A stretch of DNA of 20,000 bases from Cystobasidiomycetes sp. EMM_F5 (Eukaryota): the NCBI GenBank assembly GCA_051047955.1, contig JBPGPT010000019.1, positions 299,591-319,590 of the forward strand. The letters run 5' to 3'. The notes beneath the pieces were generated by a model. That model ran no database searches and was not told the origin of the DNA. It saw only the letters and a program-made list of their open reading frames with translations. Positions 2,107 to 20,000 of this stretch are shown here, in pieces (the stretch's first letter is position 1; every line of letters begins with the position of its first letter). Position numbers and translations under genes: made by a program.

Positions 2107-4116
2107 CTAATCGCTGGTAGACCTCCTCACGGCTCCACTAAAATATGCTGCCAGGCTGCTGAGGAGACACATACCGCCAGTATAAATGATCAGTGGACCC
2201 TAGAATGTGAAGATGAGCTTATAAACGATGTTCAGGCATTCAACTGAGCACTAATACATACATACGATTCGACTCCGTATGCAAAATGGGCTCCTCTGAA
2301 TCCTGGAGAGGATAAAAGATAGTCGGAGACCGGTCCGCTGACGATGTTTCCCACACCAGTAGCACAGAAAAAGGTAAAGAGGAGTGTAGAGCTTGCTGAG
2401 GTTCCTGCATGTGCATCGACATCGAGTAATGCCGTTACAATGCGGGGCCATAGAGATGGGAATCTGTAGGCATGCAGGCTGTGAGACCGATCCTGGAATA
2501 CCCGCCCAGTGCTGGCACTCACCCAAGTCCAAAAAAGCCAAATATGACCGAGAAAAGGAAGAGTAAGGGTGCATGTACCGCAAAACCCCACACCAGTAGT
2601 ACGGAAAGACTTGCTGCCATTGTTGCAACCGCCGTAATGATCCGCACGGGCCATCGATCTGCTAGAGCACCTAGAACAATCATACCGAGTGCGGACGTTC
2701 CTGCGGAGATGGTGTTTGTGACAGTCACGACATGCATGGCGCTCTGTTTTGGCGTACCATTGAGAATAGAGACTAATCCAGTGCCATAGCTTTCGCTCAG
2801 ATTCAGATAGCTTACGTAGGATGGTAGAGCGATATTCGGTAGAATGCTTGCTAATGCCATAGCTAGGACTGCTACAGTATATAATAAAATAGCTTTGCTG
2901 GTGAAGAATTTTACTGCGTTCTGTCTGTCCTTGCCATGGCGGTCGTGTTGACGGTATTTATGTGCGGGTGCTGTTGGGGGAATGCGTTCGCGGACAAAAT
3001 ATACTGCAATCGTAGTTGGTACAATATAGGCGACTCCCTATTGATATAGCATCAGCCAGCCCGCAACGCTCTGCCGGACGGCCGGGTATATGACAACCTA
3101 CCACGCCTGTCATTGCAACGCGCCAGCCGTATCTTTCGAACAGGCTTTGTAGAAGAAAAGGAAACACTGCACCTCCAATACCTGCTGATCACTCCTGAGT
3201 ACTTCAATCTGCTTACTTATAAAGCTTGCGAACGGACCTCCAGAGCTATAAGCTACTCCGGCAGCTAACCCTCTCCTCTTAGCAAACCACTGGAATAACA
3301 AGCTACCGGCTGAATGTGAAATCGCAATAAGCACTCATTGCGATGGCTGCAAACGACAGTACGAGACGTACTTGGTAAATATAGGAGAGCTGCACCAAAA
3401 GGCCACACGACAGCGATAGTAAGCAGTAGGATAATTGGCGATGTAGCGAATGCAGAAGAGATTAGACCAGCGCTCGCAATAACTGCTCCGAGATATTGAA
3501 AGGTAGCTCTGCGCTGCGGAAAGAGCTGAAAGAGTGGATGCACGACGAGGCAGGCGATAAAGCTGTTGCAGGAGAGGTCAGTGAGTTGGCAAATCTTCAG
3601 CTACTGTAGGTCCCTTTTCGGCTCGGCAAAAAGTGGGACTTGCAGGCAGCCTGTCATCAAAGTGCTAGCTTGAGCTAGTATCACCTTGGAACCGTTCGGG
3701 AAGAGTTTTGATATCCAGTGTGCATGCATTACGCCAGTCGAATACGCCAAGCCAAAAGTCAGGAATCTGTCAGATCCAGATGGAGCTCATAACTTAGTTG
3801 ACAGTAGTACGTATTTCGGATTCGAAGTAGCTCACTCGACGACGAAAGCGCTTGCCAGAAATATCCAAGCATACCCAGTATCAGGTGGCAGTATGCTAAT
3901 TGCTCTTCCTGAAGAGCTTTGCGTGATGCTGATGCTCCGAGTCTCGGTAGTTTCGGCAGCATCGATGTCCAGCTCGCTCATGAATTGCAGCTGCATTGGG
4001 AATTCTTCTGCAAACGGCTTCGCACCCTGCAGCAGCGACTCATCATTGGAAATGTTCTTGAATATACCCGCAGCCTCAAGACTCTGCAATTCATCGCCGC
4101 TGAGTGGATGATGCAT
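2107..4116 (-). CDS. MFS transporter, monocarboxylate porter (MCT/MCH-like), multi-exon
   Basis: PPDTGYAWIFL matches the MCT TM1 motif PDGGxAW. Also LLFQWFAKRRGLAAGVAYSS, FPFLLQSLFERYGWRVAM, LGALADRWP and many hydrophobic TM exons. Start at ATG 4116; last exon GPLIIYTGGMCLLSSLAAYFSGAVRRSTSD ends at TAG 2107-2109. Confidence 0.88.
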
Positions 4117-4180
4117 TTGATACTGGCAGACTCGCGCTGAGCAGGGTTCAGTACAGAAATAGTCGGTGTTGCCGGTTGTC

Positions 4181-4250
4181 GGCTCAGGCAGGCTCAGGCA
4201 AGCTTAGCCGACAGGAATTGCAAGCTTAGCCGACACCATGCCTAGCCGAC
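4181..4250. repeat. Short direct repeats upstream of the MFS gene
   Basis: GGCTCAGGCA x2 (4181-4200); GCAAGCTTAGCCGACA at 4198-4213 and 4220-4235; TAGCCGAC core at 4205, 4227 and 4243. Confidence 0.8.
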
Positions 4251-4280
4251 GTCGTGACATAGCCAAGTAAAAAAACCTCG

Positions 4281-16677: not shown

Positions 16678-18263
16678 ATGATTCCCGAATACTGCCTAAC
16701 GGCTATAGCCGCCATCCTAATCATACTAGCATTCTCCAAGTTGAGCCTAACGAAAGCCAACAAGAAGGTAGCCGACAGCGAAGTCAAATCAAGTCCCAAT
16801 GAAGGTCCCAATGAAGGTCGTACATGGGGAATGTGGACGCCAGAAGAGTATCGCTATCCGTCAATTAGCCCGTGCGCACATTTTGATGTGCAGTCGACCA
16901 AGCCGCTACCGTACAGACCGTTTCGATGGGGCCCCAAGTTTGTCAAGCCAAATCACATGTGCGCCGCAGGCTTCAGCTGCTAATGCCTTTCACCAGCTAC
17001 CCCATCAATCTAGGAATCTCGAAGATGGAAAGCGACACATGGCTGCAAATAGACAACCATTACAGCAAAATCATGGCTGTACGTGCCGAAAGAACAAAGG
17101 CAAGAGGCAAGAAGGCCGAGAGATGTCAGCCCGGGTACCTTGCGTATGCTGAAGAATGCCTTCAAGAGATGTCATCATTTCTCGCGGCTCGATACCCAGG
17201 CTGCTTCACCGTCAAGCGTGCAGTCTACTCGCCTGACGATGTCCAAACATGGGGAGATTCCATAGTCGGGAGGGAAGGAGGAGCGATCGTTGCCATTACT
17301 AACCATATCACGGGGGATCATTTCGATTTTGCGCAACTAAGAATGGAAGAGGGAGATCAATGGAATCCCATGAAGTATGCCGGGTGTAGGTGTAGGCTCC
17401 TCTCGTATTATAGTCTGCACTGATACCCGGTGTGCAAACCAAACATTTGCCAGTGCTCCAACAAGACGATCTCGCCTGCATGGTCGAAGATGAGCAAAGC
17501 CACTACCGTTTCCAGGCAGGATCCATCACAACTGCTGGCTTCTGGCGACTAGAGGACAAGATCGGCAAGACGCTAGCGGAAATCCACGAGTCCGGGCGAG
17601 TTCCGCAGTTCAAGCAGAAGCTACAGTTCTCCATGGAACGGATGTTTACCAAAATGAAGGTATCAGCTCCGGTAACCCGTAATAATTATTTCATGTAAGC
17701 GCATACATCGGCAGAACATGTATGCAACGCTGACAAGCCTTTGGCAAGGCAAATTGACAATTCACTCGGGTGGAGCGAGACGACAAACGGTAATGAAGAC
17801 GTCTTTGACCAAGCTACGAAGGGGCCCCGATTAGCAGCGGCGGAAGCCTATTCGACCGCCTTTCAACCGCCTCAGCCAACTGCAGATATTGCCTCGATCC
17901 ACTTTAGAACGGAAAGGCAGACGCTGAGGCGAATGCCCCGGACGGGATGTATACTGTGAGCTCGGCGATCACCTTTTACCGCCCACGGATAATAGCTGAG
18001 ATGGCAATAACAGATTTACGATCAGGACGTACTTTCTACCTCTTAGTGCAGTCGCACAGGAACCTGGGGCGCCCGGCCGTCTGGCCAGTGCGGTACGGTC
18101 CTGGCCTGAGGATGTGGCACTCTACAAAGGACTGCCCCTTTACAAGAAAGCATTACTTCCATATCTGGATGAAATGCATCGTCAGCAGGTGAAGGGCGGG
18201 GTTGTTCAGGTGGACGCTGCAGGAAATGTGATTGGAAGAGATGTCAGGACGTACCCGTTTTAA
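16678..18263 (+). CDS. DUF3445 / heme-dependent oxidative N-demethylase alpha-subunit-like protein with N-terminal membrane anchor, multi-exon
   Basis: Motifs PLPYRPFRWGP, NLGISKM..DTWLQIDNHY, FLAARYPGCF, LQQDDLACM, AGFWRLEDKIGKTLAEIHESGRVP, VTRNNYF and [29 protein letters not shown] are characteristic of fungal DUF3445 proteins. Start ATG 16678; ends ...RTYPF at TAA 18261-18263. Confidence 0.88.
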
Positions 18264-19584
18264 TTATTCGTAAACAGCTCGATAAGATAGCTTATTCAAT
18301 GTGGACATAGTAGTAAGTCAATTAGTCCGCAGATCCAGCCAGAGCTGCATGTCAAGCTGTGTAAATTGAGGGAATGTCAATTGACATCAGTGCCTGCAGC
18401 TGTCTGTAGCGCGCTCCAAGGAAGGTGAAACAAAAGTTGCGGCTTGCGTCCCTCAACAAAGTATGTATGCACAGCACACCCCGAAGCCTTCTGGTCATTC
18501 CCATCGCGATTCCCCCAGCAAGTTCAAAGGTCCTCGTCAAGCTTGACGGGTCACTCTGGATTGCCTGGCACGTATTTGATCCTTCTCGCCAAATCTGATT
18601 GAGCGGGGCTTGTCGCTTGTCGGTACTGCCAAGCTGTGTATATGGAACGCCGTCTGTAGCGCACTGGGAGGCCTGACTGCCCAGCTTCGTCTTTTACCCT
18701 GGCAACTCCATCAGCGGCATGGGATGATCCGCAGACAGGATGGACCTCTCAACTCCGCGTCAGGGAAAGTGACACTGGCCATGTAGCACTCAATGCGTGC
18801 CGGTTAGGTGTACGTCAACGGGAGTTTAATGGGGATATTGAGATAATTCTACTGCTCACCGCAGCAGCAATAGCGCCCCAGCAAAGAGCCGCTACTGCCA
18901 TTGACGACCGTTGCAGTCCCTTCACCAATGCACCATACTGCCACTGTTACGCCCACTGTCCGAATCCACAAGCTCTACGACCTTTGGGATGCTGGTCGTC
19001 TATCCAATCACAATAATCTGACAGCTCGAATGCGGGCATGCGGTCTGCCTTACATACTGCCCTTGCGTTCCATCTCAAGCGCCCTTCCAGCTGCGGATCG
19101 TGCCATCGTTGAACAGCCAGACTCGTGTCACCAAGGCCCACGTCCTGGACTGTTCTGATCCAGATATATCAGTTTGGAATTGAGCAGGCGCAGTCAACGG
19201 CGTTCATGGTGCATGATTCAACTCAGTGCCGAAGACGCAAATGACGTGAAGACTGACCATCTGTTGGTGTCTCGGATGTCGCAGTCACGAACATCACGCT
19301 TCTTTACAACGGTGGATGAAGCCAGCTCTGAGCGTGCATCGTTTGCCTGCATGCAGTCATCTTTAAGGACTCCTTCCATGCTTACGTGATTGCCAACGCT
19401 GACGTCGCAGCAGAATTGATTTGGTCTCAAGCCGAGCAAGCCGCACATTAAGAGTTTGGTCTGAGACGCCTAGCTCCGAGATGACAAATATTCTAGTCAA
19501 AGGCAGCACGACCCTGTTCGCGAGGTGTGATTAGAAAACCACGGGCAACCCAGAAGATCGTCGCCTGTCCCAAAAACAAGCAGT

Positions 19585-19973
19585 CTATTCGATGGCAACG
19601 CTTATGACGTGTCGGACACAAACTCCGTGTCCGCTGTACATTAAATCGAAACCCTCGTTGATCTTCTCCAGCGTGCCTTCTGACGTGACAAACTCGGAAA
19701 CCTTGAGCTTGCCAGCTTGCCAGTCAGAGATGAGTCCGCCCATCTGGCTGCGACCTTTGACTCCGCCGAATGCGGATCCTTGCCATCGGCGACCAGTAAC
19801 GAGCTGGACGGTAAAAGGTCAAAATATGATCCTTCCAAAGGACAGTTTTCAATAACGCACTTGGAATGGGCGAGTCGCAATCTCCTTGCCAGCAGCTGCA
19901 ACTCCGATGATGGTGCTGGTACCCCAGCCCTTATGGCAAGCCTCCAGAGCCTGTCGCATGACGGTGACGTTTC
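19585..19973 (-). CDS. S-(hydroxymethyl)glutathione dehydrogenase (class III ADH, glutathione-dependent formaldehyde dehydrogenase, SFA1/FLD1-like), last two exons; gene continues past the right edge
   Basis: Exons 19973-19861 and 19803-19585 (57-nt GT-AG intron) translate to [119 protein letters not shown] and TRPFQLVTGR..GSAFGG are diagnostic of class III ADH. Confidence 0.95.
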
Positions 19974-20000
19974 CTGAACAAAGAATTGAATCAAGCCTGA

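Follow-up and report, generated by a model that had tools for sequence, protein, structure and literature searches.

A candidate alkylamine-nitrogen module of copper amine oxidase, EutQ-type cupin, and DUF3445 genes in Cystobasidiomycetes sp. EMM_F5

Fungi, yeasts included, use dimethylamine, trimethylamine, and choline as nitrogen sources with demethylases that have no assigned genes, a question that dates from the early 1980s. According to a 2017 study of Scheffersomyces stipitis (PMC5816127), yeasts deaminate primary amines with copper amine oxidases, and growth on methyl-, dimethyl-, and trimethylamine and on choline requires SFA1, a glutathione-dependent formaldehyde dehydrogenase. The same study describes the yeast di- and trimethylamine monooxygenases as located in the endoplasmic reticulum (ER) and P450-like in their properties, with their genes unidentified; deletion of two candidate P450s had no effect, and "another enzyme family" may be responsible. 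In bacteria, EutQ-like cupin genes were placed "near Tmo and Mao genes" in Arthrobacter and Mycobacterium, and also in a Bacillus C1 cluster, by a 2015 genome report on Gram-positive methylamine users, which proposes that these cupins are "important for methylated amine oxidation" and identifies Mao as a copper/topaquinone (TPQ) methylamine oxidase (PMC5023230). Our literature search, with most subscription journals outside it, returned no function for any fungal DUF3445 protein and no gene for the fungal secondary and tertiary amine monooxygenases.

We analyzed a 20,000-nt stretch of contig JBPGPT010000019.1 from Cystobasidiomycetes sp. EMM_F5, referred to here as the window. It carries a copper amine oxidase gene, an EutQ-type small cupin gene, a gene for a DUF3445 protein resembling the alpha subunit of the bacterial heme-dependent oxidative N-demethylase HODM (a secondary-amine monooxygenase), and part of a class III alcohol dehydrogenase (ADH) gene. 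The explanation that we favor, tentatively and as something close to an even call, is that these four genes form a nitrogen-regulated module that would draw nitrogen from small, most likely methylated, alkylamines. It starts from the gene identities, the intact reading frames, a promoter duplication, an enrichment of GATAAG sites, and a close relative that models as a HODM-like fold, and from these we infer the catalytic steps, the substrate, and co-regulation.

The gene core and its duplicated promoter

The window is fungal sequence with short GT-AG introns. All 230 of its stop-to-stop open reading frames (ORFs) of ≥50 amino acids were scanned against Pfam, shorter ORFs were read individually, and splice sites were curated by hand. 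The trusted gene models are the hand-curated ones for the amine oxidase, the cupin, and the DUF3445 protein. An initial annotation, made from the sequence without database searches, had named seven families in the window: a major facilitator superfamily (MFS) transporter, an amino-acid permease, a flavin adenine dinucleotide (FAD) monooxygenase, a copper amine oxidase, an EutQ-type cupin, a DUF3445/HODM-alpha-like protein, and a class III ADH. Pfam and sequence matches recovered all seven. The elements of the core are as follows.

11886-14664, minus strand: copper amine oxidase gene, 9 exons, 762 amino acids, with Pfam N2, N3, and catalytic domains
14760-15290, plus strand: copy A of the duplication, a decayed promoter and DUF3445 exon 1 copy, with a 13-mer at 14776-14788 (plus strand) and GATAAG at 14831 and 15212
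15645-16228, minus strand: EutQ-type small cupin gene, 118 amino acids, hand model of 5 exons (16156-16228, 15994-16094, 15919-15933, 15819-15869, 15645-15761)
16229-16677: bidirectional promoter between the cupin and DUF3445 genes, with GATAAG at 16438, 16480, and 16549
16370-16930, plus strand: copy B of the duplication, covering the live bidirectional promoter and DUF3445 exon 1
16678-18263, plus strand: DUF3445/HODM-alpha-like gene, 450 amino acids, 5 exons (16678-16937, 16997-17391, 17454-17694, 17749-17955, 18014-18263), PF11927 on four of them; the model agrees with the family alignment
19588-20000, minus strand: 3' part of the class III ADH gene, cut by the window end, with about 117 C-terminal codons inside

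The strongest structural tie of the locus is a segmental duplication of about 520 nt, which joins the amine oxidase, the cupin, and the DUF3445 gene. Its two copies are approximately 80% identical, with several indels, and five of the 13 direct-repeat families in the window line up into this one event. Copy A sits directly upstream of the amine oxidase, between the start of that gene and the 3' end of the cupin gene, and its exon 1 remnant has lost the ATG and the frame and contains indels. From about 100 nt before its ATG, the amine oxidase has the upstream sequence of the cupin, which the two genes share because of the duplication. A short upstream ORF beginning MLDPVAYDKG is retained in both copies, at 14857 before the amine oxidase and at 16463 before the cupin (minus strand in each case). 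It may be a conserved upstream ORF or reflect no more than shared ancestry.

Five ORFs between 11889 and 14098 (minus strand) match Cu_amine_oxid (best E = 4.6e-49), and the exons match PF02727 and PF02728 (N2 and N3) together with PF01179 (catalytic). The reading frame is open over the whole model, and an in-frame upstream ATG at 14838 offers an alternative start. Copper amine oxidases are recognized by the TPQ precursor motif N-Y-D/E-Y and by histidine copper ligands; here the motif is present as N-Y-E-Y ('TIANY|EYII', split by an intron), and the translation also has a His-rich copper-site stretch, 'GHHHQH'. The top solved relative of the 173-residue catalytic exon is the methylamine oxidase of Hansenula polymorpha (142 bits, E = 1.1e-40), followed by the Arthrobacter phenylethylamine oxidase (109 bits) and by 3LOY (95 bits, E = 3.9e-26), the benzylamine oxidase of H. 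polymorpha. By these scores, the window enzyme is nearer to the yeast methylamine oxidase than to the benzylamine oxidase of the same yeast.

The ADH gene faces the DUF3445 gene in convergent orientation, with 1,324 nt between them. Searches with its 46-residue exon place ten class III ADH or S-(hydroxymethyl)glutathione dehydrogenase chains on top (E = 1.1e-17 to 2.1e-14; next chain, 3.1e-8), setting class III apart from the other classes by nine orders of magnitude in E, and a 71-residue exon also ranks class III first, with a small margin. Judged by these matches, the gene encodes a class III ADH, that is, a glutathione-dependent formaldehyde dehydrogenase; its catalytic zinc ligands and the residues for binding the glutathione adduct belong to the N-terminal two thirds, beyond the window end.

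The left half of the window holds four further genes and a second bidirectional promoter; the transporter, permease, and monooxygenase models are rough.

2-235, minus strand: ATP-synthase alpha/beta-family fragment, the start of the nucleotide-binding domain; the gene continues beyond the left edge
~2107-4113, minus strand: MFS transporter gene, monocarboxylate-transporter-like by eye, rough exon model
~5077 (stop) to ~7853 (ATG), minus strand: amino-acid permease family gene, N-terminal third uncertain
7854-8197: permease/monooxygenase bidirectional promoter, with GATAAG three times in tandem at 7980, 7988, and 7996 (span 7980-8001) and the 13-mer at 8047-8059 (minus strand)
8198-9977, plus strand: group A FAD-dependent monooxygenase gene, about 430 amino acids, rough exon model

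MFS_1 matches the ORF at 2522-3037 (minus strand; E = 1.1e-6, 28.3 bits, under the 33.4 cut-off), and minus-strand ORFs upstream of it look like the N-terminal half of such a transporter. AA_permease matches two minus-strand ORFs, 5349-5939 (E = 7.1e-13) and 5734-5949 (E = 3.3e-12), and coding potential peaks at 7692-7904 in the permease region. The monooxygenase gene, divergent from the permease gene with 344 nt between them, matches FAD_binding_3 at 9505-9924 (plus strand, E = 4.9e-9) and has a Rossmann exon at 8114-8425 (plus strand) with NAD_binding_8 and FAD_binding_3 matches. An ORF of 268 amino acids at 927-1730 (plus strand), rich in Arg, Cys, and Ser and without a family match, is of doubtful status and probably not a gene. 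The initial annotation had called the genes consecutive, which they are not in the strict sense: gene-less gaps interrupt them at 9978-11885 (1.9 kb) and 18264-19587 (1.3 kb). Neither gap gave a Pfam match, RNA family, tRNA, or clear coding potential. Both are unusually long for an otherwise compact locus and may represent untranslated regions, noncoding RNA, or decayed genes. Scanning the window for Rfam families, tRNAs, and tandem repeats brought up nothing of relevance.

Paired GATAAG sites are a sign of nitrogen-catabolite control. The window has 15 such sites where 8.6 are expected, a number reached by 5 of 200 shuffles, and 8 of the 15 fall within three 5' regions that total 1,773 nt (binomial P = 1.4e-5). 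This count overstates independence, since the duplication makes the sites at 14831 and 16438, at the least, homologous and two of the three regions are copies. The shared promoter motifs of the initial annotation are real, and they are mostly the duplication itself (copy A and copy B). The monooxygenase and amine oxidase promoters also have an exact 13-mer, TTTCGGGTCCGTC, in common, which is oriented alike with respect to both genes and precedes the monooxygenase ATG by 139-151 nt and the amine oxidase ATG by 112-124 nt; with ≤2 mismatches allowed, 8 of 200 shuffles yield two matches, and as a regulatory tie the motif is suggestive only. The permease/monooxygenase pair may be co-regulated with the four-gene core as part of one regulon, as these motifs hint. 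The MFS gene has no tie to the module beyond proximity.

These left-hand genes bear on a different choice of substrate. The amines could be larger ones, such as ethanolamine or choline-type compounds; the DUF3445 protein and the cupin would then have an N-alkylated amino alcohol or an aromatic amine as substrate, and the monooxygenase and MFS transporter would handle an aromatic or acid carbon skeleton, as the initial annotation had also suggested. We consider this quite improbable. It draws on the probable membership of the cupin in the EutQ family of ethanolamine utilization, on the 13-mer and GATAAG clusters that the monooxygenase promoter has in common with that of the amine oxidase, and on the monooxygenase itself, whose C-terminal exon finds its best solved relatives in 6-hydroxynicotinate 3-monooxygenase (4e-13), a decarboxylative vanillate hydroxylase, and salicylate hydroxylase. 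The protein resembles decarboxylating aromatic-acid hydroxylases and not flavin amine monooxygenases, a point that also counts against a methylated-amine pathway. So does the absence of a PTS2 peroxisomal targeting signal of the methylamine oxidase type from the first 120 residues of the amine oxidase (consensus RLxxxxxH/QL, as given in PMC5816127); its C terminus, ...NGSCCA, has no obvious PTS1 either. Larger amines are opposed by the scores of the amine oxidase, which are clearly higher for methylamine oxidase than for the benzylamine and phenylethylamine enzymes, by the formaldehyde dehydrogenase, which points to C1 units, and by the Pfam scan of the window, in which neither aldehyde dehydrogenase nor ring-cleavage genes appeared. 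For the suggestion of the initial annotation that the substrate might be an N-methyl-arylalkylamine, the FAD monooxygenase is the sole evidence.

The DUF3445 protein and its cupin neighbor

PF11927 (HODM_asu-like, formerly DUF3445) matches four ORFs at 16887-18260 (plus strand; E = 4.2e-14, 3e-26, 7.8e-7, and 3.3e-11), all above the 25-bit cut-off, and the four exons cover profile positions 1-97, 101-177, 186-225, and 226-273. The 450-residue model opens with a hydrophobic helix (Kyte-Doolittle mean of 2.28 over residues 6-24), followed by a PYRPFRWG motif, and closes on a C-terminal YPF as in its relatives. An N-terminal hydrophobic anchor is present in 89 of 99 relatives of ≥400 amino acids. 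One exon is 100% identical to 'hypothetical protein EMMF5_004223 [Cystobasidiomycetes sp. EMM_F5]', whose nearest named relatives come from Rhodotorula, Rhodosporidiobolus, and other Pucciniomycotina. The deposited 325-residue model (P0003) starts at an internal Met, leaving out the membrane anchor and the PYRPFRWG motif, and also drops 11 residues that align with HODM and all relatives. Exon 1 contains a perfect 12-nt tandem repeat (2.2 copies, 16793-16819), which encodes a repeated P-N-E-G in the linker after the anchor.

By sequence, the protein matches HODM alpha (5LTE) weakly (E = 8.8e-5). The structural comparison was made with an AlphaFold model of a Rhodotorula glutinis relative, P0004, that is 49% identical to the window protein (predicted local distance difference test score, 81.7). 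In a Foldseek search, this model matched HODM alpha 5LTH with E = 3.8e-18 and a TM score of 0.76 by target length; two HODM alpha entries scored at about 1e-17 to 1e-18, and the next match reached only E = 8.5e-3. The relative is thus predicted to fold like HODM alpha over approximately 330 residues. The conserved fungal core aligns with HODM residues 144-240 and 261-332 and so overlaps the heme b PAS domain of HODM, which is tabulated as residues 155-290 in PMC8694187.

Alternatively, the DUF3445 protein could be a heme oxygenase or sensor with a nonamine substrate, for example in an ER lipid or secondary-metabolite step, with a promoter that is merely shared with the cupin. Identity between the fungal proteins and HODM is only about 20%, and the near-invariant His of the fungal family ('..IH..G.VP'), which lies opposite a HODM His, is only a candidate heme ligand. 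The HODM holoenzyme, which N-demethylates dimethylamine with NAD(P)H and O2, combines the alpha subunit with a reductase, a small subunit, and a folate-binding subunit; no ferredoxin-reductase- or aminomethyltransferase-type domain was found among the 230 window ORFs. These three points weigh against an amine demethylase. The family is also large (976 clusters at 50% identity with E of 1e-3 or better) and occurs in varied contexts described below (P450 and GNAT neighbors and one catabolic-looking locus), and our literature search found no functional paper on it. We nevertheless give a nonamine role a low probability: the fold match extends over the whole chain and is to HODM alpha only, and the genomic company includes an amine oxidase and a formaldehyde dehydrogenase.

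The cupin gene is divergent from the DUF3445 gene, 449 nt away, and its exons are too short and split for the first Pfam scan to have detected them. With PF06249, the last exon alone scores E = 8.9e-4 and 19.5 bits, slightly short of the cut-off (21). Once spliced, the protein shares 52% identity over 86 residues with a Fusarium member passing PF05899/PF06249. The fungal family to which it probably belongs consists of proteins of 117 amino acids annotated as 'ethanolamine utilization protein' in Fusarium, Colletotrichum, and others, and a profile of 20 members matches Salmonella EutQ (2PYT) with E = 7.7e-10. Three positions that are invariant in those 20 members are altered in the window cupin (YDE to YHE, TGQ to KGI, and IP.G to IAKG).

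The cupin/DUF3445 arrangement was found a second time in a Fusarium oxysporum-like contig, locus L034 of the survey described below. There, an intronless EutQ-like gene, whose product is 100% identical to a Fusarium oxysporum protein, is divergent from a DUF3445 gene with about 500 nt between them, as in the window. Because the L034 DUF3445 gene is nested in the other major clade of the tree, the pairing occurs in two distant fungi and in two DUF3445 lineages. L034 also encodes a second, very divergent DUF3445 paralog (2345-3600, minus strand) that is convergent with the first; two demethylase-like genes by one cupin recall the distinct di- and trimethylamine activities reported for yeasts.

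The linkage in other fungi and in bacteria

To survey recurrence, we used the best 80 of 421 metagenome stretches encoding DUF3445 relatives, which represent 54 distinct loci. Recurrent co-location of the window genes, to which the initial annotation had looked for support, was not borne out: tblastn with the window proteins found the amine oxidase in 0 of 80 loci, the ADH exons in 0 of 80, and the EutQ-like cupin in 1 of 80 (L034), with the same single match at relaxed settings. The one valid MFS piece and the two valid monooxygenase pieces had no match in the 80 loci. Among 249 flanking ORFs from 50 of the 54 loci, Pfam identified 0 Cu_amine_oxid and 0 ADH domains.

The neighborhoods that did recur are of a different kind. 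At 21 loci (L007, L010, L011, L018, L026, L033, L041, L042, L045, L046, L051, L056, L057, L059, L062, L068, L069, L070, L076, L078, and L079), the gene lies in a block of Naf1, an Alg9-like mannosyltransferase, and DUF3445, often followed by Exo5, and at 4 loci it lies in a block of acetyl-CoA synthetase, PIG-V mannosyltransferase, DUF3445, and histone genes. Most of the fungal DUF3445 genes have housekeeping synteny, and family membership therefore does not imply amine catabolism. The Naf1-block loci make up one large fungal ortholog group. Many database names of DUF3445 proteins read 'alpha-1,2-mannosyltransferase', probably through mis-transfer from the Alg9-like neighbor.

Other contexts were also seen. 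A Zn2Cys6 factor lies upstream of the DUF3445 gene in L036 (~6600-16000) and L050 (~2600-6900). L036 further carries a RidA-type (L-PSP) gene on the side of the factor; its opposite flank encodes an AA_permease_2 transporter and an aldehyde dehydrogenase, and the locus looks like a second, different catabolic context for the family. The downstream ORF scanned in L050 encodes a WLM-domain protein. P450 genes are neighbors in 5 loci (L005, L043, L045, L065, and L076), and GNAT genes are neighbors in 3 (L002, L056, and L075).

In a quick maximum-likelihood tree, the window protein groups with that of L001 (63% identity) within a clade of 17 rows, in which 6 of the 9 database rows are named as basidiomycete proteins. 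A branch with 99% support in the SH-aLRT branch test parts this clade from one of 52 rows that holds all of the loci with housekeeping synteny. The scan has mostly sampled other DUF3445 paralogs, on short contigs. The clade of the window is covered by five distinct loci of 1.6-7.7 kb (L001, L002, L004, L013, and L063), in which none of the partners was found. A fair reading is that amine clusters are not the setting of the DUF3445 family as a whole, with the window's own ortholog group represented by those five short loci.

Bacterial genomes were sampled in two ways. An amine oxidase was found in 44 of 401 sampled actinobacterial genomes; at 30 of these amine oxidase loci, EutQ/Cupin_3 matched 0 of 64 flanking ORFs, in flanks of about 0.7-1.5 kb and a sample not aimed at methylotrophs. 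This result fits a cupin link that is specific to methylotrophy islands, yet it is also plainly negative. Of 80 prokaryote loci encoding fungal-like DUF3445 proteins, reduced to 51 representatives, 31 provided 111 neighbor ORFs, among which no cupin, amine oxidase, or reductase theme emerged.

Taken with the fact that ADH3 is a housekeeping gene, here convergent, 1.3 kb off, and with its promoter beyond the window, the missing partners, the housekeeping blocks, and the bacterial negatives all weigh against a dedicated amine module, and the case rests on one locus plus analogy. Alternatively, the window could be a loose neighborhood of nitrogen-scavenging genes that are each useful by themselves and serve no single pathway. 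The amine oxidase, the permease, and perhaps the cupin would answer nitrogen limitation by way of GATA factors, the DUF3445 protein would have nothing to do with amines, and ADH3 would be a chance housekeeping neighbor. In favor of this account, most DUF3445 genes lie amid housekeeping genes, the linkage does not recur, and GATAAG enrichment, with two of the three enriched regions being copies, is expected for any nitrogen-catabolic gene. We judge it somewhat unlikely as a whole. The duplication binds the amine oxidase specifically to the cupin/DUF3445 pair, and the divergent pair appears again in a different DUF3445 clade. An amine oxidase and a formaldehyde dehydrogenase are, moreover, a known functional pair in methylamine use by yeasts, and the chance that a one- or two-copy gene lies next door is well below 1 in 100 by a rough guess that was not computed.

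A proposed pathway and its comparison with known systems

The coherent amine pathway put forward by the initial annotation is upheld in part. Its nitrogen-catabolic flavor (the GATAAG enrichment), the likeness to methylamine oxidase, the HODM alpha fold of a relative, and the links in the literature all support it; the lack of recurrence, the HODM partners missing from the window, and a FAD monooxygenase unlike amine monooxygenases do not. We still prefer this pathway to any other single account of the four-gene core because a predicted heme protein of the HODM fold, with an N-terminal anchor in the style of a P450, a promoter shared with a methylamine-oxidase-like gene, and an adjacent formaldehyde dehydrogenase, fits the description given in the yeast study well. 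The N-terminal helix would hold the DUF3445 protein in the ER membrane, where a general reductase would supply it with electrons and it would strip N-methyl groups oxidatively from a secondary or tertiary amine. Of the two products, the primary amine would be converted by the copper amine oxidase to an aldehyde, ammonia, and H2O2, and the formaldehyde would be disposed of by the class III ADH. The cupin may be an accessory of unspecified role, and the duplicated promoter ties the amine oxidase to the cupin/DUF3445 pair.

A bolder form of this proposal is that the anchored DUF3445 proteins of the window's clade are the microsomal, P450-like enzymes long sought in fungi as di- and trimethylamine monooxygenases, stand-alone descendants of HODM alpha that work with general ER reductases, and that the EutQ-type cupin is their dedicated partner. 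We regard this as unlikely in its full form. A partnership with the cupin is hinted at by the Fusarium pair and, by analogy, by the cupins near Gram-positive methylamine oxidase genes.

If the proposal is true, a stand-alone HODM alpha descendant would operate at the membrane of a eukaryote with a cupin as its partner, two large uncharacterized fungal families would gain a first function, and a long-standing question would become testable. If it is false, the result would caution against deducing function from membership in PF11927, which is propagated as 'heme-dependent oxidative N-demethylase family protein'. The locus offers a concrete test, in that a single heme-protein gene and a single cupin gene are in physical linkage with genes for a methylamine-oxidase-like enzyme and a formaldehyde dehydrogenase.

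The individual proteins compare with known systems as follows. The peroxisomal methylamine oxidase of H. polymorpha (1A2V and 2OOV) is the best solved match of the window oxidase, which has the NYEY motif and the His-rich copper site; unlike it, the window oxidase has neither PTS2 nor PTS1, and its substrate preference cannot be read from its sequence. Like bacterial HODM alpha (5LTE and 5LTH), the DUF3445 protein matches PF11927 over the whole profile and has a 49%-identical relative with the predicted fold; the most conserved fungal block aligns with the heme PAS region, the near-invariant His facing a HODM His. It differs in its low identity of about 20%, its membrane anchor, and its window without partner genes, where a small cupin is the divergent neighbor instead.

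The Gram-positive methylotrophy islands (mao, tmo, tmd, and eutQ-like; PMC5023230) demethylate with the flavin enzyme Tmo and the candidate Tmd and not with a DUF3445 protein, and the likeness of their cupins to that of the window is one of family label. Islands and window have in common a small EutQ-type cupin whose immediate neighbors are a copper/TPQ amine oxidase and genes for amine demethylation, the last a predicted role in the window. The yeast methylated-amine pathway (AMO1/AMO2, SFA1/FLD1, and FGH1) differs in that its genes are not described as clustered in PMC5816127, in that Amo1 has a PTS2 and the window oxidase does not, in its host, which here is a Pucciniomycotina basidiomycete, and in its S-formylglutathione hydrolase and choline monooxygenase genes, which the window does not contain. 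It resembles the window in pairing a methylamine-oxidase-type enzyme with a glutathione-dependent formaldehyde dehydrogenase, and where an ER-bound, heme-like demethylase is expected in yeasts, the window encodes a predicted membrane-anchored relative of HODM.

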